From NCBI GenBank assembly GCA_050250855.1, contig JBFWNW010000001.1, forward strand, positions 1 to 64,000: DNA of 64,000 nt, given 5' to 3'. This stretch comes from Candidatus Babeliales bacterium (GTDB taxonomy: Bacteria; Babelota; Babeliae; Babelales; JACPOV01). The notes beneath the pieces were generated by a model. The model saw nothing but the letters and a program-made list of their open reading frames with translations, did not search any database and had not been told where the DNA came from. Position 1 is the stretch's first letter. Each line of letters begins with the position of its first letter. The position numbers and the translations under genes were made by a program. Positions 1 to 29,318 of the stretch are shown piece by piece.

Positions 1-1975
1 ATACGCAAACGATTATTTGCGCTAAGTTTGAAGATACGTGGACAATACTAGAGAAAATAGATGTTGATGTTAACGGTATATTTACAGCAATAGATAATAT
101 AAATATCTGTCCAACTATTGATCTATCGGGTGTATTTACTGCGCTAGAGTTCGGCTTCTATGATACGCAAACAATACTCTGTGCGAAGTTTGAAGATACG
201 TGGACAATACTAGAGAAAATAGATGTTGATGTTAACGGTATATTTACAGCAATAGATAATATAAATATCTGTCCAACTATTGATCTATCAGGTGTATTTA
301 CTGCGCTAGAGTTCGGCTTCTATGACACGCAAACAATATTGTGCGCTAAGTTTGAAGATACGTGGACAATACTAGAGAAGATAGATGTAGATGTTAATGG
401 TATATTTACTGCAATTGAAGCTATACCAACAGTAGATCTGTCAGGTATATTCACTGCACTTGAATTTGGCTTCTACGATACACAAACAATACTGTGTGCT
501 AAGTTTGAAGAAACATGGACAATACTAGAGAAAATAGATGTTGATGTTAACGGTATTTACACGGTACTAGATAACTTAGTATTTTCAGTAACGATAGGTG
601 AAATAACGGTATCAGTATCAATAGATTTATCAGGCGTATTTACTGCGCTAGAGTTCGGCTTCTATGATACGCAAACGATTATTTGCGCTAAGTTTGAAGA
701 TACGTGGACAATACTAGAGAAAATAGATGTTGATGTTAACGGTATATTTACAGCAATAGATAATATAAATATCTGTCCAACTATTGATCTATCAGGTGTA
801 TTTACTGCGCTAGAGTTCGGCTTCTATGATACGCAAACAATAATCTGCGCTAAGTTCCAGGATACATGGACAATATTAGATGTTCTGTGTGATATTTTAG
901 TATTGGCAGAAGATATTGATTGTGAGATAGAAGCAACACAATCTATTATATGCACTAAATTCCAAGATACATGGACAATACTAGAGAACATTTCAGATAA
1001 GATAATGACATTAAGTAATGTAGACTTGTCTGGTATATATACGGTATTAGATGTTAACTTCTCAGGCATATTTACCGCACTAGAATTCGGCTTCTATGAT
1101 ACGCAAACAATAATGTGTGCTAAGTTTGAAGAAACATGGACAATACTAGATGTTCTGTGTGATATTTTAGTATTAGTAGAAGATATAGATTGTGAATTAG
1201 CAGAAACGCAATCTATTATATGCACTAAATTCCAAGATACCTGGACGATCTTGCAAAAGATTGATGTTGATGTTAATGGTATATTCACAGCAATAGATAA
1301 TATAAATATCTGTCCAACTATTGATCTATCGGGTGTATTTACTGCGCTAGAGTTCGGCTTCTATGACACGCAAACAATACTCTGTGCTAAATTTGAAGAT
1401 ACGTGGACAATATTAGCAGATATAGAAGCGGATATTTCAGGGATATTTACCGCACTTGAATTTGGATTTTATGATACTCAAACAATTATCTGTGAAAAAT
1501 TCCAAGATACATGGACAATATTAGCAAATATAGAGGTAGATATTTCAGGTATATTTACTGCGCTAGAGTTCGGCTTCTATGACACGCAAACAATAATCTG
1601 TGCAAAATTTGAAGATACGTGGACAATATTAGCAGATATAGAAGCGGATATTTCAGGGATATTTACCGCACTTGAATTTGGCTTTTATGATACGCAGACA
1701 ATTATCTGTGAAAAGTTCCAGTATACATGGACAATATTAGCAAATATAGAGGCAGATATTTCAGGGATATTTACCGCACTTGAATTTGGATTTTATGATA
1801 CTCAAACAATTATCTGTGACAAGTTTGAGCAAACATGGACTATTCTTAATGCGCTATGCAATGGTATTGAAGGTTTGCAAGCATCAATTGATGATCTATG
1901 CTGTGAAATGTCTGATGGCTTTGAACAAACGGTGAGTATTATTGTAGGGGATATCTTCGATACATGGACTATTTT
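1..1975 (+). repeat. Intragenic tandem coding repeats (stalk), units of 162 bp/54 aa, 108 bp/36 aa and variants
   Basis: Unit recurs at positions 1, 163 and 325 (162-bp period); gatatttcag recurs at 1431 and 1539 (108-bp period). About 14 C-x-K-F-x-x-T-W-T-I-L copies are visible in the window. Confidence 0.9.
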
Positions 1976-4001
1976 AGATCCAATAGATGCAGCACTCTGT
2001 TCACCTAAAGAAATTCGTCAAGTATATGTTGGTGTTTCAACCTATACCATTTCACAACCAGGTTTTTATGTATTTGCAGAAAATATAGTATTTAGTCCTG
2101 CGTCAGGCCAACCAGCTTTAGAAATTACTACCGATAATGTAACTATTGATATGTGTGGCAAAACGCTTACGCAGGGTAATGCGGTTACAGGAGTTGATGG
2201 TATCAGAGTGCCTGGTAATACAACAATAGCACCGCGCAGCAATGTAACCATTATGAATGGTGGAATAAGCGGTTTTACTAGATCTGGTATTGTGGTAGGA
2301 ACAAATCCAATAACCCCTGCAAATACAGCAGCGCGTTTTATCACCGTTAATAACATGAAGATTTTTAACTGTTCTGAGCAGGGTGTTGAGTTTGCTTCTA
2401 CAACCAGTATTACTGATATTGAGCTTAATAATCTGAAAATTAAAAATACCCTGAATGGTATCTCGTTGACCAAAGTTAATCACGGATTAATTTCACAGTG
2501 TGATTTAGTAGTTAATACCACAGGTGCTATGCTTGATCAGTCAAATAAAATTTGCTTTAAAGAATGTAAAGCTGAAGAAAATACACAAGCAGGCTTCTGT
2601 TTGCAAAATTCAAGCAATAATATTTTTACAGCATGTAATGCCATTGGTAATGGTCAAGCTGGCAATACTAATGCATATGGCTTTGTTTCAGCTAATGGTC
2701 GTGGAAACATTTTCGAAAAATGCAACGCTTGTTGCACTATCACAACGCAAACTACGCAAGCTTTTATTGCTGCTGGGTTTGCCCTTACCGATTCAGAAAT
2801 GTGCACTAAAATTATTGATTGTGAGAGTTTTGATAATACTACCACTGGATCGGCGGTTTCTTACGGTATTTTGCTTTCAGGGCTTCAGATTACGACTTCC
2901 CAGAATAATCTTAATAATAAAGTTAATTGGTCTCCGGATGGACAATATCTTGCAGTGGGTATGTCTAATGGTACTATTACAGTATATTCATTTAATGGCG
3001 TTCTTTCTTTTGTTACTTCAGCTAGTCCTGGTCTTGTGGGTATTAACTCAGTTAATTGGTCGCCGGATGGGCAGTATCTTGCAGCGGGTACGACTGCTGG
3101 TACTATTTTAGTATATTCATTTAATGGCGTAGCCCTTTCTTTTGTTACTTCAGTTGCTCCTGGTTTAGGTACTATTACTTCAGTCAATTGGTCGCCGGAT
3201 GGGCAATATCTTGCAGCGGGTACGGGTGGTACTATTCTAGTCTATTCATTTAATGGCGTAGCCCTTTCTTTTGTTACTTCAGTTGCTCCTGGTCTTGGGA
3301 GTATTAACTCAGTTAATTGGTCGCCGGATGGGCAGTATCTCGCAGCGGGTACGACGAGTGCTATTGTAGTGTATTCATTTAATGGCGTAGCCCTTTCTTT
3401 TGTTACTTCAGTTAGTCCTGGTCTTGGGACTATTAACTCAGTTAATTGGTCGCCGGATGGGCAGTATCTTGCAGCGGGTACGAGTGGTGGTACTATTTTA
3501 GTATATTCATTTAATGGCGTAGCCCTTTCTTTTGTTACTTCAGTTGCTCCTGGTCTTGGGAGTATTACTTCAATTAATTGGTTACCAGATGGGCAGTATC
3601 TTGCAGCGGGTACGGGTGGTGGTACTATTTTAGTATATTCATTTAATGGCGTAGCTCTTTCTTTGTTTATTTCAATTGTTCCTGGTCTTGGGGCTATTTC
3701 TTCAGTTAATTGGTCGCCGGATGGGCAGTATCTTGCAGTGGGTACGACGAGTGCTATTCTAGTGTATCCTGTGTTTCCTCCATTAAGAAACAATATTATC
3801 AAAAATAATATTGTATATTGTAATGTTAGCAATGGCAGTTCAGATGGGATTGGCATTTCAGGTGTAAGCTTTGCTAATTTGATTATAGGTAATACTGCTT
3901 ATCAAAATGATAGTAATTATCAATTTGTGCTGAATGTATATAGCGGTGGGGTTAACGGTTCGCCTGGCTTATTGCAAAACGTTTCAATACCGCCATATTA
4001 G
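1..4001 (+). CDS. Array paralog 1 (5'-truncated): long repeat stalk + parallel beta-helix with inserted 7-blade WD40 propeller
   Basis: The frame of ORF 339..4001 is open back to position 3 (acg caa acg att att tgc = TQTIIC), so the true start is upstream of the window. Contains KFxxTWTIL stalk repeats, the TISQPGFYVFAENI...DNVTIDMCGK helix-start motif, Asn/Cys-rich helix coils, 7x NW[SL]PDGQYLA, and ends LQNVSIPPY. Confidence 0.85.
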   Translation, partial: TQTIICAKFEDTWTILEKIDVDVNGIFTAIDNINICPTIDLSGVFTALEFGFYDTQTILCAKFEDTWTILEKIDVDVNGIFTAIDNINICPTIDLSGVFTALEFGFYDTQTILCAKFEDTWTILEKIDVDVNGIFTAIEAIPTVDLSGIFTALEFGFYDTQTILCAKFEETWTILEKIDVDVNGIYTVLDNLVFSVTIGEITVSVSIDLSGVFTALEFGFYDTQTIICAKFEDTWTILEKIDVDVNGIFTAIDNINICPTIDLSGVFTALEFGFYDTQTIICAKFQDTWTILDVLCDILVLAEDIDCEIEATQSIICTKFQDTWTILENISDKIMTLSNVDLSGIYTVLDVNFSGIFTALEFGFYDTQTIMCAKFEETWTILDVLCDILVLVEDIDCELAETQSIICTKFQDTWTILQKIDVDVNGIFTAIDNINICPTIDLSGVFTALEFGFYDTQTILCAKFEDTWTILADIEADISGIFTALEFGFYDTQTIICEKFQDTWTILANIEVDISGIFTALEFGFYDTQTIICAKFEDTWTILADIEADISGIFTALEFGFYDTQTIICEKFQYTWTILANIEADISGIFTALEFGFYDTQTIICDKFEQTWTILNALCNGIEGLQASIDDLCCEMSDGFEQTVSIIVGDIFDTWTILDPIDAALCSPKEIRQVYVGVSTYTISQPGFYVFAENIVFSPASGQPALEITTDNVTIDMCGKTLTQGNAVTGVDGIRVPGNTTIAPRSNVTIMNGGISGFTRSGIVVGTNPITPANTAARFITVNNMKIFNCSEQGVEFASTTSITDIELNNLKIKNTLNGISLTKVNHGLISQCDLVVNTTGAMLDQSNKICFKECKAEENTQAGFCLQNSSNNIFTACNAIGNGQAGNTNAYGFVSANGRGNIFEKCNACCTITTQTTQAFIAAGFALTDSEMCTKIIDCESFDNTTTGSAVSYGILLSGLQITTSQNNLNNKVNWSPDGQYLAVGMSNGTITVYSFNGVLSFVTSASPGLVGINSVNWSPDGQYLAAGTTAGTILVYSFNGVALSFVTSVAPGLGTITSVNWSPDGQYLAAGTGGTILVYSFNGVALSFVTSVAPGLGSINSVNWSPDGQYLAAGTTSAIVVYSFNGVALSFVTSVSPGLGTINSVNWSPDGQYLAAGTSGGTILVYSFNGVALSFVTSVAPGLGSITSINWLPDGQYLAAGTGGGTILVYSFNGVALSLFISIVPGLGAISSVNWSPDGQYLAVGTTSAILVYPVFPPLRNNIIKNNIVYCNVSNGSSDGIGISGVSFANLIIGNTAYQNDSNYQFVLNVYSGGVNGSPGLLQNVSIPPY
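2919..3770 (+). repeat. Seven near-identical WD40 repeats (129-132 bp each)
   Basis: Repeated gttaattggtcgccggatgggcagtatcttgcagcgggtacg...gtatattcatttaatggcgtagccctttcttttgttacttcagt. Confidence 0.92.
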
Positions 4002-4027
4002 CAATAATAGTTTAATGAGGGCTATGG

Positions 4028-5641
4028 ATGTTTAATAATAAAAGGGTTTTTATGAAGCGTCACATTGTATATTTTTTAGTAGGTATTCTTTGTATGGGAT
4101 TACTAGGTAGTTTGTATGCTCAAGATTATACTGAAGATGAATTGATTTACCGTAGCTGTCCAAGTAAGCTTTCTTTAATTTTAGAATATACGAATCAAGC
4201 TGTTGAAAAATTAGCATGCGTGCAAACAACGCAAATAACAACGCCAACCACTATAACAAATCCTGGGTATTATTGCTTAAATAATGATATTGTTGGTACC
4301 ATTACTATAAATTCTGACCGCGTTATTTTAGATTTAAATGGTTTTGAAATTTCTGGTACCACAGATCATGTTATTGTTGTAGAACATACCGATATTGTTA
4401 TAAAAAATGGTATTATTCGTGGCACAACAACCGGAAGTAGCGGCATTTCTGTTACTGATGGCATCAATATAACTATAGAAAATATTAATTTTACTGATAA
4501 CTATAACGGCATACTTTTGACCACGGTCAGTTGTATTGCCATAGAGCAATGCATGTTTACTGAACATACAAAAGATGGTAGTTGTATCAATGCAACAGGT
4601 CTTTATGGTGCCCATTTTTCTGATATTGTATGCAAAAATAATACATCAAATCAAGATATAGCTCTTATTAATCTTCTCAATGCCGATACTGTTTCTTTAG
4701 AACGAATAACATTAAATAATAATGTATTACAAAACAACTCTTTCAATATAGGTTCTTTTGGAGGCGGCCTAACACTAATATCGTCATCAAACCTTTTTTT
4801 GAATGCTATTGCCATAGATGAAAATTTTGGTCCTTCTTCTGGATTTGGGATTATCTGTATAGGTCTTGCGTTGGCAGGAGTGCATAACGTTTATTGCCAG
4901 GATTGTACCGTTAATAATAATGTATCAGATGTTCTTTTTATTGGTGTTCTTACAGCACCACTGGCTTTGCAGGGTAATTCTAACCTTACCTTTAAAAACT
5001 GTTATGCCAATAATAATAGTAGTAATAGTAACGCTGTAGAAGGTTTTGAAATAAATAGGTGTACTCACCTAACGATGCTTGATTGTCAAGCTAATAATAA
5101 TAGTGGTTCTACATCTACCGGTTTTACCTATGGATTTGCTTTATATGGCGGTCCTGGATCAGATATTTTATACAAAGGGTGTAGCGCTTCTGGAAACTCT
5201 GGAAGAACGGTAGGTGGTTTTACCTTTAGTTTTGCAGCTGATAATTTTAAAGGTATTTTTCAAGAGTGTATTGCAAATGATAATACTGCTGTCCTTACGG
5301 CCTATGGTTTTGAATTTCAGCAATCAAGTACTTCATGTGTTGTAAACTGTATAGCAAAGCGTAACAGTGGCGGTACAGCTGGGTACGGTATTTATTTAAA
5401 TAGTACAGCAAGCTTTGAAGTTGACTCTAATCTGGTAGTTGGTAATAGCACGACGGGTATTGAAAATGTAAGTGGTGTAGCTAATGTATTTTTCTCTAAT
5501 AAAGCGCAAGAAAATGGTACCTTGGGCGCAAATAATTATAGCGGCGTGCCAACAACACAAATTATAACATACGATATTGGGCTTGCAGATTTTACTACAA
5601 CCAATACACGACCATTTATTAATTTAGCTATTCAACCGTAG
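4028..5641 (+). CDS. Array paralog 2: exported right-handed parallel beta-helix protein, no stalk or propeller
   Basis: Signal peptide (likely start 4052, MKRHIVYF), YRSC motif, TTITNPGYYCLNNDI/VILDLNG helix start, CxANNN coils; C-terminus nearly identical to paralog 3 (TTTNTRPFINLAIQP). Confidence 0.8.
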   Translation: MFNNKRVFMKRHIVYFLVGILCMGLLGSLYAQDYTEDELIYRSCPSKLSLILEYTNQAVEKLACVQTTQITTPTTITNPGYYCLNNDIVGTITINSDRVILDLNGFEISGTTDHVIVVEHTDIVIKNGIIRGTTTGSSGISVTDGINITIENINFTDNYNGILLTTVSCIAIEQCMFTEHTKDGSCINATGLYGAHFSDIVCKNNTSNQDIALINLLNADTVSLERITLNNNVLQNNSFNIGSFGGGLTLISSSNLFLNAIAIDENFGPSSGFGIICIGLALAGVHNVYCQDCTVNNNVSDVLFIGVLTAPLALQGNSNLTFKNCYANNNSSNSNAVEGFEINRCTHLTMLDCQANNNSGSTSTGFTYGFALYGGPGSDILYKGCSASGNSGRTVGGFTFSFAADNFKGIFQECIANDNTAVLTAYGFEFQQSSTSCVVNCIAKRNSGGTAGYGIYLNSTASFEVDSNLVVGNSTTGIENVSGVANVFFSNKAQENGTLGANNYSGVPTTQIITYDIGLADFTTTNTRPFINLAIQP

Positions 5642-5665
5642 TATATTAAAAAAAGGATACTATTT

Positions 5666-7441
5666 ATGAAGAGAATTTTTTCATTATTACTGATAAGTTG
5701 TTCTTTTGCGTTTTTGGTACATGCAAAAGATCTTTCAAAGCACGTACCTATGCCGGTAGAAATGGCGATGCATGCGGATGATCTTGCTACATTGACCGAT
5801 TTTGAACTTATGCAGCTCACGCGTGAATGTTATCGAGTTCTGGGTCAAGAGGCTCAAGAGAGCACCGTTGCTTCATGGGTTCATGATTGTTATACCACCA
5901 TGCAGCAAGGAGTTTCCATTGAAAGAACTGAGCTTGTGCATGCATGTTCTGCATTATTAACTACTATTGCTGGCAATCGTACATGCCTTGATAAATTGAC
6001 GCAAATTTTGCAAAACTCAATAACTATTTTATCAAAAGTAATCTGTTTGAATGTAACAGAAATTACCACACCACAAGTCATAACAGATCCTGGCTACTAT
6101 TGTTTGACGGCAGATGTTGTTGGCACTATTACCATTAGTGGCCAGCGTATTATTTTGGACCTTAATAATCACCAAATTTCTGGAACATTAAATGCTGTTG
6201 AGCTTACGGGTACTAATATTGTTATTAAGAATGGTATTATTCGTGATGCGTCGAGTGTTGGTATTACTGCAAACGTAGCAGAAAATCTTACTATAGAAGA
6301 TATTACCTTTATAGCAGATAGAACAGGTATAGTGTTGACAACCGTAACATGTCTCACGCTGCAAGATTGTACGTTCAGAAATCACTTAGGATGTTTGCGA
6401 GCAACCAATCTTTTTGGGGCTAACCTTTCTAACTTAGTTTCTAAACATAATAATTATCCAGCTGCTATGCTTGGTGTGACTATTCTTTTTTATTTTGTTA
6501 ATGCGCATAATGTAAATGCTGAAGGTATTATCTGTTATGAAAATGCATTAGCTGGTTCTGCTTTTGGGAATTTTACTTCGCTTGTTACGCTTGAAAGGTC
6601 AGCGAATATTGTGTTTAAAGATAGCAATTTTAATCATAATTTTGATAGTGGCAGTGGGGGGTATCCTTTTGTAATACAAGGCTGTAAAGATGTTATCTGT
6701 ATTGATTGTACAATAAATAATAATAGTACAGGTTTTATGTATGGTCTTTTGGTTACTCAGGATTCTAGCTCTGGCATAGATTCTGAAGATGTAACGCTTA
6801 TTAACTGTTCAGTGAATCAAAATATCTCTACTGATGAATTAGATGCATTTTATATTGATAGAGCAAATAATGTTACTCTTATTGATTGTCAGGCTAATGA
6901 AAATAGGGGAGCTGCAACAAGAACGGTGGGGTTTGTTTTTGACCGAGCGACCGATATAATCTGTAAAAACTGTCTATCATTAACCAATAGCGGTCCAAAT
7001 TCCGCTGGATTTTTAAGTACCGGTAATTCTCTTGCAGATTCTTCAGTTAAAGTTATTTTAGAAGATTGTATAGCAAATGACATGATGTCAACTTCGAATG
7101 CCTATGGTTTTCAATTTGTTAATACCGTGACGTCATGCATTATAGATTGCATAGCAAAGAAAAATGTTGGCGACACAACAGGGCAAGGTATTGCTCTAAC
7201 TGATTGTGCAGGCTGCGTAGTACAATCTAACCGTGTTGTTGCTAATAGCTCTGTCGGTATTCAGGATACGACGGGTATTAATAATATGTTCCTTCAAAAT
7301 AAATCACAAGAAAATGGTACCCTTGGTGCAAATAACTATAGTGGCGTGCCGGCAAGCCTTATTATAACGTATGATATTGGTGATCAGGATTTTACTACAA
7401 CTAATACGCGACCATTTATTAATTTGGCTGTTCAGCCGTAA
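5666..7441 (+). CDS. Array paralog 3: exported parallel beta-helix protein with N-terminal helical module
   Basis: RBS aagga, signal peptide, CY..MQQGVSIERTEL module, NRTC motif, VITDPGYYCLTADV, ends PFINLAVQP. Confidence 0.8.
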   Translation: MKRIFSLLLISCSFAFLVHAKDLSKHVPMPVEMAMHADDLATLTDFELMQLTRECYRVLGQEAQESTVASWVHDCYTTMQQGVSIERTELVHACSALLTTIAGNRTCLDKLTQILQNSITILSKVICLNVTEITTPQVITDPGYYCLTADVVGTITISGQRIILDLNNHQISGTLNAVELTGTNIVIKNGIIRDASSVGITANVAENLTIEDITFIADRTGIVLTTVTCLTLQDCTFRNHLGCLRATNLFGANLSNLVSKHNNYPAAMLGVTILFYFVNAHNVNAEGIICYENALAGSAFGNFTSLVTLERSANIVFKDSNFNHNFDSGSGGYPFVIQGCKDVICIDCTINNNSTGFMYGLLVTQDSSSGIDSEDVTLINCSVNQNISTDELDAFYIDRANNVTLIDCQANENRGAATRTVGFVFDRATDIICKNCLSLTNSGPNSAGFLSTGNSLADSSVKVILEDCIANDMMSTSNAYGFQFVNTVTSCIIDCIAKKNVGDTTGQGIALTDCAGCVVQSNRVVANSSVGIQDTTGINNMFLQNKSQENGTLGANNYSGVPASLIITYDIGDQDFTTTNTRPFINLAVQP

Positions 7442-7463
7442 TAATTATTCGCATTGAAAGTAA

Positions 7464-7491
7464 GCGGGGCTCTGAGAAATCAGAGCCCCGC
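7464..7491. terminator. Probable bidirectional intrinsic terminator
   Basis: Perfect 12-bp stem gcggggctctga-GAAA-tcagagccccgc between convergent genes, followed by a T-rich run. Confidence 0.8.
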
Positions 7492-7495
7492 AATT

Positions 7496-8116
7496 TTATT
7501 TTTTCAAAAACTCATAGACCATCTGGCTCCATGATTCCATATTAGGAACGAACTGCTGCATTTCTTGAATGGTCAAAAGTTGGCCGCTTTTTAGTTCAGA
7601 TTTTACGCTTATATTTTCAGAGGTTCCTTCAAGTAAAAATACAAAACCGATATGAACTTGCCCAACAGCATTAGAATCGTCATTTAAAATACCAAGAGGT
7701 TGTATGGTAAATGAATCTTGGTAAAGAACTTCCTCATGGAATTCACGTTTTGCCCAATCAAAAAGAGAACTGCTATTTTCCATATCTTCTTGACGAATGT
7801 GGCCACCTATGCCTAAAGAGTATTTATTTTGCAAGCGCTGTTCTGTTGCTTGCGCAGTACGTTGCATTAAAAAATAGCGGTTATTATGAGAAAAAACTAG
7901 ATAGGGAATAATTTGTTTATAGGTAGGATCTTGTTCCATTAAAGAACGGGGTAAAAACTCTTTTTTTTCTTGAATTAAGGTTAGATATTCATCAAAATCA
8001 ACTGCTTGTATTCCGGACCAGGCAGCATTTTTTTTGAATAAGCTTTCTCGCTTTATTACAAGGATCTGTTCATCATGAGATGAAATGGGTTGGTTTCTTT
8101 GTTGTATGGTAGCCAT
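7496..8116 (-). CDS. NUDIX-family phosphoesterase (COG4112/YmaB-like)
   Basis: KQIIPY, EQRL..KYSLGIGGHI, REFHEE Nudix box, GILNDD..AVGQVHIG. Confidence 0.8.
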   Translation of the reverse strand: MATIQQRNQPISSHDEQILVIKRESLFKKNAAWSGIQAVDFDEYLTLIQEKKEFLPRSLMEQDPTYKQIIPYLVFSHNNRYFLMQRTAQATEQRLQNKYSLGIGGHIRQEDMENSSSLFDWAKREFHEEVLYQDSFTIQPLGILNDDSNAVGQVHIGFVFLLEGTSENISVKSELKSGQLLTIQEMQQFVPNMESWSQMVYEFLKK

Positions 8117-8286
8117 AAAAACCCTTTTTATATGAAAGTAATAAAATTGATCTCAATTAAGGTTATCCTAAATTTTTTTTTTTGGTAAGGTTGATTAATA
8201 ATATTTAAAAAAGTATTGACAAAATTAAAAATATTTGACTCTACTTATAAATAATAAAAAATGGATTCAAACAAGGAAAAAAGAGA

Positions 8287-10020: not shown

Positions 10021-10062
10021 AAAAATAGTGTGATGATGAAAACTTTATAAAGGAGTTAACCA

Positions 10063-11667: not shown

Positions 11668-11701
11668 GGTAAAAAGTGAATAGTATAAAAAAGGATGAAG
11701 C

Positions 11702-13423: not shown

Positions 13424-13434
13424 GATTTTGTAGA

Positions 13435-13462: not shown

Positions 13463-13502
13463 CGAACTTTGAAAGAAAATAAAAAAGAAGAAGAAGAGGG
13501 TT

Positions 13503-17702: not shown

Positions 17703-17752
17703 AGTTATTTATACGAATGGATTAAACTATTTGTTAAAAAAAGGATAAAAGG

Positions 17753-20410: not shown

Positions 20411-20414
20411 TGAG

Positions 20415-20636
20415 CGTTCGAATGCTTCGACCCATTCGACAAGCTCAGGGCAGGCCCCCTCGAATGGCCTTTAGTCCCGAGCAGCTGTAAAGCTGACGAG
20501 GGGTCAGCACGAACGGTTTAAGGTCCTTCGCCTTACCTGTTCTGCTGTGCCCGGCGTAAGCACTTTAGTCCGAAGAAGTTTTAACGAAGGCGGATTGTGC
20601 GAAGTCTGGGAGCTTGTCGAAGGAATGTAGTGCGAA
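20415..20636. repeat. Nested composite REP-like palindromic element, copy 1
   Basis: Arms gcttcgac..tcagcacgaacgg and ccttcgcct..gagcttgtcgaagg, each interrupted by other short palindromic modules; homologous to 23466, 26342 and (inverted) 37863. Confidence 0.85.
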
Positions 20637-20656
20637 TGCAAAAAAAAGGATAAAAG

Positions 20657-23461
20657 ATGAACTGTATACATAAATTTTTTGCCATAATAATGGCAGGGTT
20701 CATAGCATGCTCCGTGCAAGCCATGGATAATCACTTTAGTAAAATATCAGACGATCAATTGCAAGAATTGATTATTACTGCCTATCAGGAACTAAAAGAG
20801 CTAGATAGCTTGCCAGATGAATTGTCTGCTTGTTATCAAAACATTATGCAGGGTATTCCTGTAGAGCGCTCAGAGCTAGAGCGCATGAGTTCTCTTTTGG
20901 CATCTGATGCTCTACGCGCTTGTTATGGCACTTCATGTGGCAAATTGAGTTGTATGCTGAATCTGTTGTGTGAAATTAATGAAGATATTACCGGAATTTT
21001 TACCGTTATTGACAATATTTCCATAACGCTGACCGGTGATATAATGATTGGTGCAATAGTTGACCTATCAGGCGTATTTACCGCTCTAGCATTTGGTTTT
21101 TATGATACGCAAACAATAATCTGTCAAAAGTTTGAACAAACATGGACAATTTTACAAAAGATTGATGATGATGTGATGGGTGTTTTTACTGCAATAAATG
21201 CACTAGAAGATTTTTCTGGTATATTTACAGCTCTTGAATTTGGATTCTATGATACGCAAACAATAATCTGTGAAAAATTTGAGCAAACATGGACTATACT
21301 AGCTCCGGTTGTTGTAGCATTATGTTCGCCACAAGAAATTCTGCAAGCAAATATTGGTGTAACAACGTATACCATTTCACAACCAGGTTTTTATGTATTT
21401 GCAGAAAATATAGTATTTAGTCCAGCATCAGGCCAGCCTGCATTAGAAATTACTACCGATAATGTAACGATTGATATGTGTGGCAAAACGTTAACGCAAG
21501 GCAATGCGATTGCAGGCGTTGATGGCATACGAATTCCTGGCAATACAACAGCGGCGCCGCGCAGCAATGTGACCATTATGAATGGTGGAATTAGTGGTTT
21601 TTCAAGATCTGGTATTGTGGTTGGCACAAATCCAATAACGCCAGCAAATACCGCAGCGCGTTTAATTAGTATCAAGAATATGAAAATTTTTAGCTGTAGC
21701 TCTATTGGCGTTGAATTTGTATCAGGCAGTAGTATTGCACAAGCAACCTTAGAAAATCTTGAACTGTTTTCTAATTTGATCGGTGCATCATTGACTAATG
21801 TTGTTGATAGTTCAATAAAATCTTGTGATATGATCTTAAATACAACGGGTATTAGATTAAATCTATCGTCTGACATTACAGTAGAAAAATGCAAAGCTCA
21901 TAAAAATACACAAGCTGGTTTCTGGCTGCAGAATGCTAGCAATAATACGCTTACTCAATGCTTTGCAACAAATAATGGCCAAGGTGGCAACACTGATGCC
22001 TATGGCTTTATAGCACAAGGTGGTTATGCCAACGTATTTGAAGAATGTATAGCGCAAGGAACCTTCAGTAATGCAACGGGTGATGATAACGTTGCAGCAG
22101 GTTTTGCCCTAACCAGTACCGAGATGTTTTCAAAAATTATTAACTGTGAAAGTTTGACTAATACAACGGTCAGTGGTTTTGCAACTCCTTATGGCATCTT
22201 GTTAACTAATACGCTTCCAGAAACAGGCCTTACTTTGGCATTTAGCGCTACGGATATTTTTGGATTATTCCATCTAGCATGGACGCCTGACGGTAAGTAT
22301 TTAGCAGCAACTCCAAATGCTGGTGCAATTTATTTAAATGAATTTGATCCTAGAGAAGGTTTGTTTCTTGTAGCGACTCAGAGTACTATTAACGGAGTAG
22401 CTTTTGGCTTTGCGTGGTCACCTGATGAAAGATTTTTTGCTTTGCTTAATGGTGGCTCTACTAATCTTGATCTGTATTCATTTGATCAAGAGACGAAATT
22501 TTTAACATTTCTAAATACCACCCTTGTTCCTCCTATGGCCTCGACTCTTGCATGGTCGCCAAATGGCCAGTACTTGTTGGTTGGTTATCCTCTTACAGGT
22601 GGTGGCGGTGGTGGTTTTGATTACACGATTTATATTTTTACGGGAGGAGCGCTAGGAGGTCCTATTGGTCTTTTTTTGGATAGAACCTTTGGCGCAGGCG
22701 TTAATTCTGTTGATTGGCTTGATAATGAAACTTATGCTGTAGGTGGACCTGTAACAGGAGGAGGCTATTCTATAGGGGTTTATAGTTTTAATCCAGCGTT
22801 TCAGTTACCTCTTGGTGATAAATTCTTGACTTTATTACTTACAACTGCATCGCCGGGAGTTGCAATCAACCGAGTTAAGTGGTCTCCAGACAAACGCTAT
22901 TTGGCGGCTATTGACGCTGGAGGTGGTCTGTTTGTTTATACGTTTGATGGAACAACACTAGGTACTACTCCTGCAACGGCAACAGTGTCTGCTGTAGCAA
23001 ATGATTTTGACTGGTCGCCCGATGGTAAATATATAGCGGTTGCTCATGATCAGGGTTTAGATGTTTACCGATTTTCAAGATCATTATTTAGCTTGTCATT
23101 GCAAGATACTCTTTCTACCGGTAGCCAATCATTAGCTGTTGCATGGTCACCAACAGGAGAGTTTTTAGCCTTACCTATTTTACAAGGTTTTCCAAGTACC
23201 CCTGTTAATACCCTTAATATATACAATGCTCTTGAATTTACTGCTACCAAAAATATTATAAAAAATAATGTTGTTTATGGTAATAATGGTAATAGTTTGC
23301 CAAGTGGTTTAGGAATATCTGGGTCAAGCTTTTCTAATCTGATTATTGGTAATACTGCTTATAATAATCAGTTTAATTATGAATGTGTGACCAACGTATT
23401 TAATAGTGGTATTAATGCAAGCCCGAGTATATTAGAGAATGTTTCCGTGCCGCCGTATTAA
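20657..23461 (+). CDS. Array paralog 9: exported short-stalk beta-helix + WD40 propeller protein with helical module
   Basis: Signal peptide ending SVQA, helical module, LRAC, conserved helix, 7 WD blades, ends LENVSVPPY. Confidence 0.85.
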   Translation: MNCIHKFFAIIMAGFIACSVQAMDNHFSKISDDQLQELIITAYQELKELDSLPDELSACYQNIMQGIPVERSELERMSSLLASDALRACYGTSCGKLSCMLNLLCEINEDITGIFTVIDNISITLTGDIMIGAIVDLSGVFTALAFGFYDTQTIICQKFEQTWTILQKIDDDVMGVFTAINALEDFSGIFTALEFGFYDTQTIICEKFEQTWTILAPVVVALCSPQEILQANIGVTTYTISQPGFYVFAENIVFSPASGQPALEITTDNVTIDMCGKTLTQGNAIAGVDGIRIPGNTTAAPRSNVTIMNGGISGFSRSGIVVGTNPITPANTAARLISIKNMKIFSCSSIGVEFVSGSSIAQATLENLELFSNLIGASLTNVVDSSIKSCDMILNTTGIRLNLSSDITVEKCKAHKNTQAGFWLQNASNNTLTQCFATNNGQGGNTDAYGFIAQGGYANVFEECIAQGTFSNATGDDNVAAGFALTSTEMFSKIINCESLTNTTVSGFATPYGILLTNTLPETGLTLAFSATDIFGLFHLAWTPDGKYLAATPNAGAIYLNEFDPREGLFLVATQSTINGVAFGFAWSPDERFFALLNGGSTNLDLYSFDQETKFLTFLNTTLVPPMASTLAWSPNGQYLLVGYPLTGGGGGGFDYTIYIFTGGALGGPIGLFLDRTFGAGVNSVDWLDNETYAVGGPVTGGGYSIGVYSFNPAFQLPLGDKFLTLLLTTASPGVAINRVKWSPDKRYLAAIDAGGGLFVYTFDGTTLGTTPATATVSAVANDFDWSPDGKYIAVAHDQGLDVYRFSRSLFSLSLQDTLSTGSQSLAVAWSPTGEFLALPILQGFPSTPVNTLNIYNALEFTATKNIIKNNVVYGNNGNSLPSGLGISGSSFSNLIIGNTAYNNQFNYECVTNVFNSGINASPSILENVSVPPY

Positions 23462-23465
23462 TGAG

Positions 23466-23708
23466 CGTTCGAATGCTTCGACCCATTCGACAAGCTCAGG
23501 GCAGGCCCCCTCGAATGGCCTTTAGTCCCGAGCAGCTGTAAAGCTGACGAGGGGTCAGCACGAACGGTTTAAGGTTCTTCGCCTTACCTGTCCTGCTGTG
23601 CCCGGCGTAAGCACTTTAGTCCGAAGAAGTTTTAACGAAGGCGGATTATGCGAAGCCTGGGAGTACTCGCGAAGGAAGCGAACAAAGTGAGTTGAAGGGT
23701 AGTGCGAA
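23466..23708. repeat. Nested composite REP-like element, copy 2 (extra insert 23664-23691)
   Basis: Near-identical to 20415-20636 except that cttg in gag-cttg-tcgaagg is replaced by tactcgcgaaggaagcgaacaaagtgag. Confidence 0.85.
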
Positions 23709-23728
23709 TGCAAAAAAAAGGATAAAAG

Positions 23729-26335
23729 ATGAACTATATACATAAAATTTTTGCCATAATAATGGCAGGGTTAATGGCGTGTTCCGTGCAAGCCATGGAT
23801 AATGAAGAATCAGAAGCGATGCGTTCGTGTTGCAATTCAAACAATAAATTTGACCAAGTGTTGGAGCTTGTGTGTGAAGTTAATGAAGATATAACAGGAA
23901 TATTTACCGCTCTTGAAAATATCGATATAAAGCTCAACGTTAATTTAACAATTAATGTAACGATTGATCTTGCAGAAGTATTTACCGCTCTAGCATTTGG
24001 TTTTTATGATACACAAACAATAATCTGTCAAAAGTTTGAACAAACATGGACAATTTTACAAAAGATTGATGATGATGTGACGGGTGTTTTTACTGCAATA
24101 AATGCACTAGAAGATATTTCTGGTATATTTACAGCTCTTGAATTTGGATTCTATGATACGCAAACAATAATCTGTGAAAAATTTGAGCAAACGTGGACAA
24201 TAATAGCCCCGGTTGCAGCAGCGTTATGTTCGCCACAAGAAATTCTGCAAGCAAATATTGGTGTAACAACGTATACCATTTCACAACCAGGTTTTTATGT
24301 ATTTGCAGAAAATATAGTATTTAGTCCAGCATCAGCTCAGCCTGCATTAGAAATTACTTCCAATAATGTAACGATTGATATGTGCGGCAAAACGTTAACG
24401 CAAGGCAATGCGGTTGCAGGCGTTGATGGTATAAGAGCTCCTGGTAATACAACAGCAGCGCCGCGCAGCAATGTGACCATTATGAACGGTGCAATTAGCG
24501 GCTTTACCAGATCTGGTATTGTGGTTGGCACAAATCCGGTAACGCCAGCAAATACCGCAGCGCGTTTTGTTACCATCAAGAATATGAAGATTTTTAACTG
24601 TAGCTCTGTAGGCGTTGAATTTGTATCAAGTAGTAGTATTGCACAAGCAACCTTAGAAAATCTTGAGCTTTTTTCTAATCAGATCGGCGCATCGTTGACC
24701 AATGTGATTGCTGGTTCAATAAAAAGCTGTGATATGACGTTAAATACAACCGGTCTTAGATTAAATCAATCATCTGATATTGTTATAAAAAAATGCAAAG
24801 CGCATAAAAATACGCAAGCTGGCTTTTGGCTGCAAAATGCTAGCAATAACACGCTTACTAAATGCTTTGCCATAAAAAATGGCCAAGGTGGGAGCACTAA
24901 TGCCTATGGCTTTATAGCACAAGGCGGTTATGCCAACGTATTTGAAGAATGTATAGCAGAGGGAACGCTCAGTAATGCAACGGGTGATGACAACGTTGCA
25001 GCAGGCTTTGCCCTAACCAGTACCGAAATGTTTTCAAAAATTATTAACTGTGAAAGTTTGACCAATACAACAGTAAGCGGTTTTGCCATTCCTTACGGCA
25101 TTTTGTTAACGAATACATTTCCAGCAACAGGCCTTACCTTAACGGTCTCTGCCAGAAGTTTTACAAATACGCTTTATACAAACAATTCATGGTCCCCTAA
25201 TGGCAAATATTTAGCATCATCTCCAGCATCTCCAACGACAAATTTGCTTATAGCAGAGTTTGATTCTGTAGCAAGAACATTGAATCCATATTTTACTGAT
25301 CCTCTTGTCCTTACTTCTACGGTAAATACGATTGCATGGTCTCCTGATGGGCGTTATGTTGCTATAGGTACTAGCGCTGGTGATGTGAGTACTTATTTAC
25401 TTGATGTAGCGGGACATCTATTAACTCTTATTGATACTCAGAACACTACGGGGGCTGTTAATTCTGTTTCATGGTCGCCCAATGGCCAGTATCTTTTGGT
25501 TGGCCATAATCTAGCGGGTGGCTTTGATTTTCGCATTTATCGTTCTAATGGTGGGGTTTTAAGTCTAGTTCTATCCTCAGCATTAGGGCTCGGAGCTAAC
25601 TCTGTTGATTGGCGCGATAATCTAACCTTTGCTGTAGGCGGGGTGATATCAGCGGGTGTTTCTATCAGAGCATATAGTTTTAACCCCATGACTAATATAG
25701 CTACTTCACTTTCATCAGCATCGCCGGGCATTGATATTCAGGAAGTTCGTTGGGCTTCAGATAAATGCTATTTAGCTGCCTCTGGTAGTGGAGTAGGTAC
25801 TAATATTTTTGTTTATCCATTTAGTGGTACTTCTTTGGGCACACCAGCAACAGCAACGTTTGGCGATACAGCCAATTTTCTTGTTTGGTCACCTGATGGT
25901 AAATATATAGCGATTGGCGGCGTAACGCCACAGGGTGTAAAAGTGTATAGATTTTCAAGAACATTATTTAGTTTATCTTTTCAGAGTTCTGTTCCAGCAT
26001 CGGGGGATGTTATTGGTCTTGATTGGTCACCAAGTGGTGAATTTCTTAGTGTTTCATATAGCACTGGGTCTTTTATTAATCTCAATTTCAGGATATACAA
26101 TGCTCTTGAATTTACCGCTGCCAAGAATATTATAAAAAATAATGTTGTTTATTGCAGTAATGGTGATAGTTTGCCAAGTGGCATAGGAATATCAGGTTCA
26201 AGCTTGTCTAATTTGATTATAGGTAATACTGCGTATGAAAATGAATTTGATTATGAATTTGTGACCAATGTATTTAATAGTGGGATTAATGGAAGCCCGA
26301 GTATATTAGAGAACGTTTCCGTGCCGCCGTATTAA
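23729..26335 (+). CDS. Array paralog 10 group member: exported short-stalk beta-helix + WD40 propeller protein lacking the helical module
   Basis: Signal peptide ending SVQA directly followed by MDNEESEAMRSCC; conserved helix, 7 WD blades, ends LENVSVPPY. Confidence 0.85.
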   Translation: MNYIHKIFAIIMAGLMACSVQAMDNEESEAMRSCCNSNNKFDQVLELVCEVNEDITGIFTALENIDIKLNVNLTINVTIDLAEVFTALAFGFYDTQTIICQKFEQTWTILQKIDDDVTGVFTAINALEDISGIFTALEFGFYDTQTIICEKFEQTWTIIAPVAAALCSPQEILQANIGVTTYTISQPGFYVFAENIVFSPASAQPALEITSNNVTIDMCGKTLTQGNAVAGVDGIRAPGNTTAAPRSNVTIMNGAISGFTRSGIVVGTNPVTPANTAARFVTIKNMKIFNCSSVGVEFVSSSSIAQATLENLELFSNQIGASLTNVIAGSIKSCDMTLNTTGLRLNQSSDIVIKKCKAHKNTQAGFWLQNASNNTLTKCFAIKNGQGGSTNAYGFIAQGGYANVFEECIAEGTLSNATGDDNVAAGFALTSTEMFSKIINCESLTNTTVSGFAIPYGILLTNTFPATGLTLTVSARSFTNTLYTNNSWSPNGKYLASSPASPTTNLLIAEFDSVARTLNPYFTDPLVLTSTVNTIAWSPDGRYVAIGTSAGDVSTYLLDVAGHLLTLIDTQNTTGAVNSVSWSPNGQYLLVGHNLAGGFDFRIYRSNGGVLSLVLSSALGLGANSVDWRDNLTFAVGGVISAGVSIRAYSFNPMTNIATSLSSASPGIDIQEVRWASDKCYLAASGSGVGTNIFVYPFSGTSLGTPATATFGDTANFLVWSPDGKYIAIGGVTPQGVKVYRFSRTLFSLSFQSSVPASGDVIGLDWSPSGEFLSVSYSTGSFINLNFRIYNALEFTAAKNIIKNNVVYCSNGDSLPSGIGISGSSLSNLIIGNTAYENEFDYEFVTNVFNSGINGSPSILENVSVPPY

Positions 26336-26341
26336 TGAGCT

Positions 26342-26481
26342 TTCGAATGCTTCGACACGCTCAGCACGAACGGTTTAAGGTCCTTCGCCTTACCTGTTCT
26401 GCTGTGCCCGGCGTAAGCACTTTAGTCCGAAGAAGTTTTAACGAAGGCGGATTGTGCGAAGTCTGGGAGCTTGTCGAAGGG
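26342..26481. repeat. Nested composite REP-like element, copy 3 (left arm uninterrupted)
   Basis: gcttcgac-acgc-tcagcacgaacgg without the 72-bp insert; right half nearly identical to copy 1. Confidence 0.85.
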
Positions 26482-26510
26482 GTGTGGTTACGCAAAAAAA
26501 AGGATAAAAG

Positions 26511-29318
26511 ATGAACTGTATACATAAATTTTTTGCCATAATAATGGCAGGATTGATGGCATGTTCTGTGCAAGCCGTTGATAATAATCGCTTTAGTAAA
26601 ATGTCAAATGATCAGCTGCAAGAATTGATTGTTACTGCCTATCAAGAAATGAAAGAACTAGAGATTTTGCCAGATACGAGCAGTGTGCTCCATGTTTGTT
26701 ATCAAAACATTATGCATGGCATGTGCGTGGAGCGATCAATGCTTGAAGAGGTTTGCTCTTTTTTAGTATCTGATGCGGTGCGCTCTTGTTTTGATAATTC
26801 ATGTAGTAAGTTGGCTTTCGTATTGAATCTTTTGTGTGAAATTAATGAAGATATTACCGGAATTTTTACCGTTATTGACAATATTTCTATAATTACCCTA
26901 ACGTTTGATGTAACGCTTGGTGCAACAGTTGATCTTTCAAGCGTACTTACCGTCCTAGCATTTGATTTTTATGATACGCAAACGGTAGTGTGCCAAAAGT
27001 TTGAAGAAACATGGACAATTTTACAAAAAATAGATGATGATCTGACTACGCTAATAAAAGATATTTCTAGTGTATTTACTGCCGTTGCATTTGGTTTTTA
27101 TGATACGCAAACAATAATCTGTGAAAAATTTGAGCAAACGTGGACAATAATAGCCTCAGTTGCAGCAGCATTATGTTCGCCACAAGAAATTCTGCAAGCA
27201 AATATTGGTGTAACAACGTATACCATTTCACAACCAGGATTTTATGTATTTGCAGAAAATATAGTATTTAGTCCAGCATCAGGCCAGCCTGCATTAGAAA
27301 TTACTTCCGATAATGTAACGATTGATATGTGCGGCAAAACATTAACGCAGGGCAATGCGGTAGCAGGCGTTGATGGCATACGAATTCCTGGCAATACAAC
27401 GCTAGCCCCACGCAGCAATGTGACCATTATGAATGGTGCTGTTAGCGGATTTACCAGATCTGGTATTGTGGTGGGCACTAATCCAATAACCCCAGCAAAT
27501 ACCGCGGCACGCTTGATTACCATTAAGGATATGAAAATTTTTAGCTGCAGCTCGGTGGGTGTTGAATTTGTATCAGGCAGCAATATTACGGGAGCCTCTT
27601 TAGAGAATCTTGAGCTTCTTTCTAATTTGATCGGCGCATCGTTGACCAATGTTGTTGATAGTTCAATAACATCATGTGATATGACGCTAAATACAACAGG
27701 TATCAGATTAAATCTATCATCTGATATTGTCATAGAAAAATGCAGAGCACATGAAAATACACAGGCAGGTTTCTGGCTGCAGAATTCTAATAATAATACG
27801 CTTACTAAATGCCTTGCAATAAATAATGGCCAAGGTGGCAGCACTAATGCGTATGGCTTTATAGCGCAGGGCGGTTTTGCCAATGTATTTGAAGAATGCA
27901 TAGCGCAAGGAACGCTGAGTAATGCAACCGGTGATGATGATATTGCCGCAGGGTTTGCATTAACAAGTACCGAAATGTGCTCAAAAATTATTAATTGTGA
28001 AAGTTTAACCAATACAACGGTGAGCGGTTTTGCAATTCCTTATGGTATTTTGTTAACCAATACGTTCCCCGGAACAGGTCTTACGTTATCTGTTACGCAA
28101 GGTATTGTTACTGTTCCTACGTGCCTAAATTGGTCGCCTGATGGGAAGTATTTAGCAGTTGGAAATTCAAATGGAGCATCAAGTACTCTTTTTGTTTTTA
28201 GGTTTGACCCTGTAGCAAAAACGTTGGCATTTTTATCTTCTCCAGCCGCCGCTCATGGAGGTATAGTAACTTCAGTTTCCTGGTCGCCTGATGGGCGATT
28301 TATTGCTCTAGGTGGTGTACCACCAGGAGGTGTTCCAGGAGGTGTTACGATTCGAACCTATTCATTTAATGCAGCAGCAGGAACGGTAACGCTTATTGAT
28401 TCTGAGTCTACTTCAATACAATCTGTTCGTTCCGTTTCATGGTCACCAAATGGGATGTATCTTCTTGCGGGTCAGGATTCGACGACGACTGGAGTGCCTG
28501 GTGGTATTAATCTTCGTGTGTATCGTTCTAATGGAGGATCGTTAACTCTTGTTCGATCATCAGCATTCTCAACAGGAGCTCAAGCAGTTTTTTCTGTTGA
28601 TTGGCTCAATGATCAGAAGTTTGCTGTAGGAGGAGTTGTAGATGCAGGAATATCTATTGGTGTATTTAGGTTCAATCCTATGACTAATGCTGTTACTTCA
28701 CTTTCATCAGCATCGCCAGGAATTCAGATCAATGGAGTTCGCTGGTCTCCCGACAAACGTTATTTAGCTGCATGTGGTACCGGAGCAGGAACGAATATTT
28801 TTATCTATCCATTTGATGGTACTACTTTGGGAACCCCAGCAACAGCAACATTTGGCGCTACAGCCAGTTCTCTTGACTGGTCACCAGATGGTAAATATAT
28901 AGGAGTTGGCGGTACTGCTGCGCGAGGTATTAGAGTATATAGGTTTTCAAGAACATTATTTAGTTTATCCTCGCCAAGTATTGTTCTATTTGGCGGTGGC
29001 GGAATCACTTTTGAAGGAGTCGAATGGTCGCCAAGTGGGGAGTTTTTTGTTAGTAGTAATCAAATTTTAATTACGGTTTACAGTGCCCTTGTATTTAGTG
29101 CCATAAGAAATCTTGTAAAAAATAATGTGGTGTATTGTAATAATGGTGATAGTTTGCCAAGTGGTCTAGGAATATCAGGTTCAAGCTTTAGTAATATGAT
29201 TATTGGCAACCAGGCTTATAATAACCAGTTTAACTATGAATTTGTGACAAACGTATATAAAGGTGGCATTAACGGCGGTTCAAGTATTTTAGAAAATATT
29301 TCCGTGGCCCCTTATTAA
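26511..29318 (+). CDS. Last array paralog: exported short-stalk beta-helix + WD40 propeller protein with helical module
   Basis: Signal peptide ending SVQA, helical module, VRSC, conserved helix, 7 WD blades, ends LENISVAPY. Confidence 0.85.
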   Translation: MNCIHKFFAIIMAGLMACSVQAVDNNRFSKMSNDQLQELIVTAYQEMKELEILPDTSSVLHVCYQNIMHGMCVERSMLEEVCSFLVSDAVRSCFDNSCSKLAFVLNLLCEINEDITGIFTVIDNISIITLTFDVTLGATVDLSSVLTVLAFDFYDTQTVVCQKFEETWTILQKIDDDLTTLIKDISSVFTAVAFGFYDTQTIICEKFEQTWTIIASVAAALCSPQEILQANIGVTTYTISQPGFYVFAENIVFSPASGQPALEITSDNVTIDMCGKTLTQGNAVAGVDGIRIPGNTTLAPRSNVTIMNGAVSGFTRSGIVVGTNPITPANTAARLITIKDMKIFSCSSVGVEFVSGSNITGASLENLELLSNLIGASLTNVVDSSITSCDMTLNTTGIRLNLSSDIVIEKCRAHENTQAGFWLQNSNNNTLTKCLAINNGQGGSTNAYGFIAQGGFANVFEECIAQGTLSNATGDDDIAAGFALTSTEMCSKIINCESLTNTTVSGFAIPYGILLTNTFPGTGLTLSVTQGIVTVPTCLNWSPDGKYLAVGNSNGASSTLFVFRFDPVAKTLAFLSSPAAAHGGIVTSVSWSPDGRFIALGGVPPGGVPGGVTIRTYSFNAAAGTVTLIDSESTSIQSVRSVSWSPNGMYLLAGQDSTTTGVPGGINLRVYRSNGGSLTLVRSSAFSTGAQAVFSVDWLNDQKFAVGGVVDAGISIGVFRFNPMTNAVTSLSSASPGIQINGVRWSPDKRYLAACGTGAGTNIFIYPFDGTTLGTPATATFGATASSLDWSPDGKYIGVGGTAARGIRVYRFSRTLFSLSSPSIVLFGGGGITFEGVEWSPSGEFFVSSNQILITVYSALVFSAIRNLVKNNVVYCNNGDSLPSGLGISGSSFSNMIIGNQAYNNQFNYEFVTNVYKGGINGGSSILENISVAPY

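Follow-up and report, generated by a model that had tools for sequence, protein, structure and literature searches.

The window analysed here is the first 64 kb (64,000 nucleotides) of contig C1 in the genome of a Candidatus Babeliales bacterium (GCA_050250855.1; 1.22 Mb, 11 contigs, 95% complete). It opens with a tandem array of long genes whose predicted products combine a signal peptide, a stalk of coiled-coil-like 18-residue modules, a right-handed parallel beta-helix and, in some members, a WD40-type propeller nested within that helix. The family to which these genes belong is confirmed as real, large and undescribed. The favoured reading, to which a rough probability of 0.45 is assigned, is that they encode exported, non-enzymatic binding proteins for host contact, acting either as surface fibres or in secreted form. 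It is preferred because the proteins have no conserved charged residue in the helix, are acidic and rich in cysteine, and lack a barrel, and because the genome encodes a VKOR homologue and secretins. Eleven long open reading frames (ORFs), all on the + strand, span window positions 3-29318, with leuS next at 29414; an earlier note, made from the letters alone, had put the number of co-oriented paralogs at about ten. The ORFs are numbered here as genes 1 to 11 in their order along the window and are otherwise identified by their first position.

Ten of the 11 ORFs exceed the cut-off of the Pfam family Beta_helix (PF13229), with 34-53 bits against a required 25.9. The remaining one, gene 4 (ORF 8287), has only a weak pectate-lyase-like match (PF12708, 17 bits against a cut-off of 27), though it still aligns with its paralogs. 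TIGR03804, the NCBIfam parallel beta-helix repeat, is above cut-off in ORFs 3-4001 and 17753. The helix-start motif T-I-x-x-[PS]-G-x-Y that had been read from the translations was also recovered: ten of the 11 proteins match the strict pattern [TI][IV][ST]x[PS]GxY, and a relaxed pattern adds gene 3 (ORF 5666, VITDPGYY) to bring the count to 11. In an AlphaFold2 model of gene 6 (ORF 11702), built from a 19-row family alignment and with a mean predicted local distance difference test score (pLDDT) of 78.3, the helix at residues 185-573 is mostly above 90, the N-terminal module at residues 30-86 reaches 67-88, and the stalk at residues 87-184 is helical at low confidence. When this model was compared with solved folds (VIA), Z scores of 25-35 were obtained over about 300-350 aligned residues, with enzymes and non-enzymes tied. 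The best match was phi29 gp12 (Z 34.6, root-mean-square deviation (rmsd) 3.4, 352 aligned), followed by AlgE4 (33.8), NosD (32.8), CBA120 TSP3 (32.1), a PL6 lyase (32.0), Vag8 (31.9) and PfbA (31.1); Foldseek gave E-values of 2e-5 to 7e-4 and template modelling (TM) scores of 0.2-0.37. The ESM Atlas returned generic beta-helix clusters only, mostly from Planctomycetota, Verrucomicrobiota and Bacillota. As judged from the models, the fold is thus confirmed as a right-handed parallel beta-helix of the pectate-lyase/CASH type. In the 19-row alignment, I, G, Y, L, N, V and F are the sole residues of the columns that are invariant or 90% conserved, and none of D, E, H, K and R reaches the 90% level anywhere in the helix, which makes a common catalytic activity unlikely.

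Propeller families of the WD40 type are found by Pfam in six of the 11 genes (ORFs 3, 13503, 17753, 20657, 23729 and 26511), exactly the division into six with and five without that had been named beforehand. PF00400 passes its cut-off in five of these, and ORF 13503 passes PF23389 and PF08662 instead. The sole propeller modelled is that of gene 8 (ORF 17753; nine-row alignment, mean pLDDT 66.5), in which the helix (residues 180-470) and the propeller (residues 480-810) both lie at about 80-90. Foldseek identifies the latter as a seven-bladed WD40 fold (E 1e-14), and it superposes on 2ymu_B with Z 40.1 and rmsd 1.5 over 279 aligned residues, and on 5yzv_A with Z 39.6. The beta-helix and propeller folds for which the earlier note had recommended profile and fold searches are therefore both confirmed by Pfam, models and Foldseek. 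AlgE4 aligns 326 residues across model positions 179-879, and phi29 gp12 aligns 335 across 178-885; both alignments span the propeller, which suggests that the helix continues across it. Since the 75-residue tail also matches the C-terminal columns of propeller-less paralogs (hhalign E 1e-4, probability 56%), the propeller is nested ahead of the last helix coils and does not form the terminal tip that had been envisaged. In neither of the two fold searches with the ORF 17753 model did any of the best 50 matches align more residues than a single domain contains. The propeller of gene 1 (2921-3748) has seven blades of 43-44 residues, detected by TRF as a 129-nucleotide (nt) period in 6.3 copies, and the six full blades compared have a mean identity of 78% (53-98%) against 26-33% in three other propellers; by its sequence it looks like the product of recent re-amplification or homogenisation of one blade.

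The stalk varies in length. Units recognised by a TWTIL-like motif number 15, 0, 0, 2, 2, 4, 10, 2, 2, 2 and 2 in genes 1 to 11, so that the range within the array is 0 to at least 15 (0 to at least 14 had been estimated), and one family gene elsewhere in the genome has 40. In gene 1 the stalk is composed of exact 18-residue modules of three kinds, each starting with Phe, with a few longer inserts, and the tandem-repeat periods detected (108, 162 and 168 nt) are consistent with multiples of an 18-residue unit. Eighteen residues correspond to five turns of an alpha-helix. The stalk of gene 7 (ORF 13503) has a hydrophobic period of 3.55 (power 141 against 54 +/- 16 in shuffled sequences), that of gene 1 gives a weak, mixed signal, and AlphaFold2 draws helices in the stalks of ORFs 11702 and 17753, with pLDDT below 50. 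The Pfam family Baculo_PEP_C is matched at 39.6 bits by ORF 13503 (cut-off 38) and at 28.8 bits by gene 1. According to the accessible part of PMC3695513, this family, which has predicted coiled-coil regions, ranks with those that cross-match most, so the match is taken to reflect coiled-coil character and not kinship. Collectively, the sequence features point to a stalk of coiled-coil-like 18-residue modules. A three-copy prediction for residues 90-415 of ORF 11702, a fragment run without controls, gave ipSAE values of 0.00 and 0.01, which speak neither for nor against a trimer.

A signal-peptide-like N-terminus is present in all 10 complete ORFs, as had been claimed, when judged by a heuristic of our own that requires a basic N-terminus, a hydrophobic 12-mer (Kyte-Doolittle 2.2-2.7 in these proteins) and an AxA-like site; a lipobox-like Cys occurs in the signal peptide of three genes only and is doubtful. 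Read from the alignments, an N-terminal helical module of about 60 residues is clear in ORFs 5666, 11702, 20657 and 26511, takes variant forms in 8287 and 13503, survives only as a remnant in 17753 and is lacking in 4028, 10063 and 23729. This module, the stalk count and the propeller thus differ gene by gene, which agrees with the proposal that modules, the helical one included, come and go independently, and the conserved tail that accompanied this proposal is likewise seen in the alignments of the array proteins. Net charge ranges from -17 to -103 and each protein has 15-40 Cys, several of them at fixed places within stalk modules. The proteins are acidic and rich in Cys, Asn and Thr, and from their sequence they are predicted to be Sec-exported.

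Genes for an onward route are present in the genome, which encodes two secretins, LspA, two Omp85 proteins and a VKOR homologue; no DsbA-like protein was found in it with the Thioredoxin_4 model. A C-terminal autotransporter barrel (PF03797) is absent from the 11 proteins and from the whole 95%-complete genome in a search that matched the positive-control genomes, and a single LPxTG, attributable to chance, is the only sortase-type motif, so the earlier statement that neither signal is evident stands. The Pfam matches considered for the 11 proteins (for gene 1, the best 25 of 36 families) include no TPS domain. A genome search for ShlB-type transporters gave no match, but the control genomes were unmatched too. 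No protein family is common to the flanks of all four arrays of the family in this genome.

The modules have not diverged at the same pace. Among the four closest genes (17753, 20657, 23729 and 26511), the helix is 82-89% identical, with a synonymous divergence (dS) of 0.30-0.54 and a nonsynonymous to synonymous ratio (dN/dS) of 0.12-0.19; the corresponding values are 72-85%, 0.34-1.14 and 0.12-0.25 for the tail, 61-82%, 0.24-0.62 and 0.31-0.44 for the stalk, and 45-58%, 0.75-1.10 and 0.37-0.52 for the propeller. Between genes 1 and 7 the helix is 84% identical and the propeller only 32%. The idea of a constant scaffold with a variable tip therefore survives in its contrast of helix and propeller, though not in the terminal position of the latter. 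The contrast suggests a scaffold that is more constrained, and either younger or homogenised, and propellers that are older and freer. Domain swapping, looked for as conflict between helix and propeller trees, was not shown: the topologies do not differ significantly (approximately unbiased test, p-AU 0.08-0.36) and only branch lengths do, the end branches of the six window genes measuring 0.04-0.13 in the helix tree and 0.26-2.5 in the propeller tree.

The array had also been described as diversifying. Old duplication and divergence are indeed seen, dS between paralogs being at least 0.24, but a device for hypermutation or phase variation is not. No reverse transcriptase (RVT_1) is matched in the genome, positions 1-29500 contain no long homopolymer or simple-sequence tract, and dN/dS is below 1 in every module; these observations point to a standing repertoire of old paralogs and not to an active generator of variants. 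The longest homopolymers in that interval are runs of A8 (found within leuS and in the 5′ leader of each of genes 9-11), T8-T11 (between genes 3 and 4) and T9 at 8319 (in gene 4). Three DNA sequencing runs from one study contain the region, and in two of them the contigs match its unique parts without differences; contigs break in the repeats, and the assembly joints in these runs have short sides of 20-66 letters that are unusable.

A profile made from a family alignment (E < 1e-5) finds 27 family ORFs in this genome, covering 65,604 nt or 5.4% of its length, in four arrays and one fragment. Array 1 (C1:3-29318, 11 ORFs) lies in the window; array 2 (C1:141895-156690) has five ORFs, array 3 (C1:337203-348003) three, of which two probably represent a single gene interrupted by a 100-N gap, and array 4 (C4:157748-173256) seven. 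Outside the window, 14 of the 15 helix-carrying ORFs have no propeller. The family extends to eight of the nine other genomes of the source's taxonomic family and, across the phylum, to 84 of 261 genomes (E <= 1e-10 in both cases), 63 of 189 high-quality genomes and 56 of 145 genera, and the phylum matches often stand in tandem. In a set of 5.8 billion clusters close relatives are few, 15 matching a helix-propeller query and 21 a stalk query, and a profile search of 1.84 billion representatives gave 110 matches at E <= 1e-30, 819 at <= 1e-10 and 5476 at <= 1e-3, the weaker ones probably being generic beta-helices. Many of the best are giant multi-module proteins of 2000-4160 residues. Some metagenome relatives (P0012, P0013 and the giant matches) carry two or more full stalk-plus-helix modules in a single polypeptide, and modules have thus been concatenated within genes as well as duplicated. 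The other genomes with a helix-propeller-tail layout are filed as Candidatus Dependentiae or Babeliales, save two filed as 'uncultured Pseudomonadota'; the leucyl-tRNA synthetase (LeuRS) of these two is 59-61% identical to that of the source genome, close to the 63-64% found for two members of its own taxonomic family. Within the present sampling, the gene family is restricted to Dependentiae/Babeliales. No published description linking the phylum to a beta-helix family was found in the portions available of the literature, PMC4776705, PMC6561590 and PMC4378268 included, in whose supplementary tables such genes may figure as hypothetical proteins; to that extent the view that the architecture is not a characterised system holds.

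In the favoured reading of the family as exported non-enzymatic binding proteins, the products would fold in the periplasm, cross the outer membrane by a secretin-based (type II) route and then bind host material, whether displayed as fibres on the infectious cell or released from it. The common scaffold would be the beta-helix, and stalk length together with the presence and sequence of the propeller would provide a fixed repertoire of specificities. Several points weigh against this. Export past the periplasm, surface location, ligand binding and a role in host range are all steps that we infer. The closest fold relatives mix many enzymes with adhesins at tied Z scores, the stalk and N-terminal module are poorly modelled (the stalk below pLDDT 50), and a MAFFT alignment of repeat coils, on which the lack of conserved charged residues is based, can slip out of register. 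No anchor was found, there being no barrel, no partner common to the flanks and only the doubtful lipobox Cys of three genes. Furthermore, the part of PMC6561590 consulted gives a signal peptide for 44% of Chromulinavorax coding sequences, and signal peptides in Dependentiae are usually read, in the sections available of that paper and of PMC4378268, as marking secreted effectors. A more specific proposal, which has to be considered doubtful, sees in the family the principal fibres by which Dependentiae attach to their hosts, anchored or docked through the N-terminal module, raised on an oligomeric coiled-coil stalk of 18-residue modules and exported in folded form through a secretin in place of an autotransporter barrel, with the nested WD40 domain as an exchangeable ligand face and the set of paralogs fixing which protists a lineage can enter.

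An effector function inside the host cell is the first of the rival explanations to be weighed. The propeller would then be a eukaryote-like interaction domain that hijacks host complexes, with helix and stalk as its carriers. Signal-peptide-bearing repeat proteins of Dependentiae, those with WD40 repeats among them, are read as effectors in the accessible text of PMC4378268 and PMC4776705, the genome has a type II route, and the propeller is equally like eukaryotic and bacterial WD40 proteins. However, the domain that would do the work is missing from five of the 11 array genes and from nearly all helix-carrying ORFs elsewhere in the genome (14 of 15), the 15-40 Cys per protein fit an oxidising extracytoplasmic setting better than the host cytosol, and a long, variable stalk would be a spacer typical of surface fibres. 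This explanation is accordingly judged unlikely, if deserving of real weight.

Lower still stands the notion that the proteins are structural parts of the envelope with no specific host ligand, forming either a protective coat or, in the infectious stage, periplasmic or outer-layer material cross-linked by disulfides. An investment of 5.4% of the genome would suit such a purpose, as would the abundant Cys at fixed stalk positions and the VKOR homologue, and Chromulinavorax, which is without lipopolysaccharide genes, shows dense periplasmic material in the available portion of PMC6561590. A coat would nevertheless rarely need some 25 diverged paralogs with different heads, and a propeller that diverges faster than its scaffold is more easily reconciled with a binding surface than with a lattice, so that this role seems improbable.

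Polysaccharide-degrading or -modifying enzymes (a depolymerase, lyase or epimerase) that open the host glycocalyx, cyst wall or food-vacuole contents are a very unlikely identity for the family. Tailspike depolymerases, AlgE4, AlgG and PL6 lyases are all among the fold matches at Z 29-35 and Foldseek E 2e-5 to 7e-4, and weak tail-spike matches are found in PHROG (E 4e-4 for ORF 10063 and 0.01 for ORF 11702). Against this, the non-enzymatic helices of PfbA, Vag8 and NosD score equally, no acidic or basic residue reaches 90% conservation in the alignment, and sequence searches of the PDB gave no meaningful match to solved enzymes or any other entry (best E 0.15-1). In AlgE-type epimerases the motif DPH(D/E) comes after AYGF; here AYGF is present and DPH(D/E) does not follow it. 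Finally, prophage or tailocin tailspike or tail-fibre genes, which the tailspike-like fold and the PHROG matches might call to mind, are highly improbable, as every complete gene has a signal peptide, the neighbours checked are housekeeping genes, two scans of viral contigs gave no viral relatives and the family is spread over 56 of the 145 genera of the phylum.

The first gene of the array, gene 1 (3-4001), has lost its 5′ end and retains at least 15 stalk units (approximately 3-1982), the helix (2004-2880), the seven-bladed propeller with near-identical blades (2880-3776) and the tail (3777-3998). The suggestion that the array continues upstream does not hold, the window beginning at the contig start and only this 5′ end being missing. 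It is probably the fragment at C2:2-703, on the minus strand, in which a signal peptide and stalk run off the start of contig C2, with housekeeping genes beyond. Two propeller-less genes follow, gene 2 (4028-5641) with signal peptide, beta-helix (Beta_helix 52.9 bits) and tail and no stalk unit, and gene 3 (5666-7441), in which an N-terminal helical module joins those three parts. Directly 3′ of gene 3 lies a hairpin (7464-7491) with a perfect 12-bp stem containing nine G-C pairs, which is terminator-like in both directions and by its sequence would close the first transcription unit of the array. Beside it, within the array, a 206-residue ORF with no Pfam match lies on the minus strand (7496-8116). 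The next three genes also have no propeller. Gene 4 (8287-10020) encodes a signal peptide, variant N-terminal module, two stalk units, diverged beta-helix and tail; gene 5 (10063-11667) a signal peptide, two stalk units, beta-helix (Beta_helix 49.5, NosD 44.2 bits) and tail; and gene 6 (11702-13423) a signal peptide, the N-terminal module at residues 30-86, four stalk motifs at 87-184 and the beta-helix and tail at 185-573.

Propellers are present in all of the remaining genes. In gene 7 (13503-17702) the signal peptide is followed by a variant N-terminal module with a linker, 10 stalk units, beta-helix, a diverged propeller (~16515-17492) and the tail. Gene 8 (17753-20410) has a signal peptide, two stalk units, beta-helix (residues 180-470), the nested seven-bladed propeller (residues 480-810, nt 19190-20182) and a tail at residues 811-885. 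The last three, which share signal peptide, two stalk units, beta-helix, propeller and tail, are gene 9 (20657-23461; propeller ~22232-23236), gene 10 (23729-26335; ~25142-26110) and gene 11 (26511-29318; ~28083-29093), the N-terminal module being present in genes 9 and 11 and absent from gene 10. Most intergenic gaps are 24-79 nt, with 175-267 nt ahead of genes 9-11 and 845 nt separating gene 3 from gene 4, and AAGGA-like ribosome-binding-site motifs precede the gene starts. Genes 9-11 have in common a conserved leader that ends in A8 and then GGATAAAAG before the start codon (window 20640, 23712 and 26494), and this leader has evidently been duplicated along with the genes.

Every neighbour checked in the window is a housekeeping gene; they encode LeuRS (leuS), transaldolase, a glycosyltransferase, UvrB (uvrB), an M3 peptidase, an MscS-like channel, RecD2, ATP synthase alpha and a DEAD-box helicase. 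The glycosyltransferase, of the GT4 family (32732-33868), lies 3.4 kb downstream of the array, past leuS and transaldolase. A class I aminoacyl-tRNA synthetase-like gene adjoins two of the four arrays: leuS (29414-31876) is found 3′ of array 1, and a 639-residue LeuRS paralog (C4:155758-157674; 24% identical over 181-246 residues) precedes array 4. This is probably a coincidence. In the sister-genus genome G103, family members lie near leuS and are cut by contig ends; in genome G105 none adjoins leuS. G103 also has nine head-to-tail ORFs of 420-523 residues on the minus strand of its contig C15 (3495-16279), which resemble the short stalk-less members at C4:165035-173256; a weak beta-helix signal was obtained for one of the three scanned. 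A second tandem family of the source genome, at C1:471001-476265 with C3:2-592 and at C2:103605-106807, combines a signal peptide and a common N-terminal domain with a WD40 propeller that has the same WSPDG-type blades. Its propellers are 33-45% identical to those nested in the helix proteins, and its C1/C3 copies carry, in addition, a hydrophobic anchor at the C-terminus.

The Dependentiae parasitise protists and are widespread. With 5.4% of a small genome, presence in a third of the sampled phylum genomes and a build like that of adhesins and receptor-binding proteins, the family is an obvious candidate for host contact, and it offers concrete targets in the few cultured strains. The published genome analyses, in the parts available, stress ankyrin and other repeat effectors (PMC6561590; PMC4378268; PMC4776705). 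The architecture is also of structural interest in its propeller nested within a beta-helix, its exact 18-residue stalk modules and the re-amplified-looking propeller of gene 1.

Among known systems, the polymorphic membrane proteins (Pmps) of chlamydiae and other type V passengers (pertactin, Vag8, Ag43) are similar in that exported beta-helix proteins form multigene and in part tandem families in a small-genome obligate intracellular bacterium, with diverged paralogs that are presumed to be adhesive, and Vag8 itself belongs to the top fold matches (Z 31.9). They differ in the C-terminal barrel, which neither the proteins nor the genome has here, and in module order, which is reversed, the conserved module and stalk being N-terminal and a WD40 domain being nested in the helix. 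As for Pmp motifs, each protein contains 0-1 copies of GGA[ILV] and 2-9 of FxxN, the latter near the number that composition predicts. The tailspikes of phages (phi29 gp12, CBA120 TSP3, HK620 and Sf6) likewise have an N-terminal attachment or stalk region followed by a right-handed beta-helix, and related genes occur in sets of differing specificity; the proteins described here are set apart by signal peptides, a cellular context, an absence of viral relatives and a lack of conserved catalytic residues.

The CASH/PbH1 proteins NosD, AlgE4/AlgG and PfbA are comparable through Beta_helix and NosD Pfam matches and folds at Z 31-34, but all are without the stalk and nested propeller. The NosD equivalog TIGR04247 reaches only 17-21.5 bits against a cut-off of 300, among housekeeping neighbours with no nos context, and the LPxTG anchor of PfbA is not found here. 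The recently amplified prokaryotic WD40 propellers of Nostoc (2ymu) and Thermomonospora (5yzv) are the best matches of the ORF 17753 propeller, and the near-identical blades of gene 1 recall them; there, however, the propeller is an end domain of a cytoplasmic signalling protein, whereas here it is an insert in an exported beta-helix protein. Were the family to prove the main attachment fibre of Dependentiae, it would be the functional counterpart of chlamydial Pmps and phage tailspike sets, differently built.

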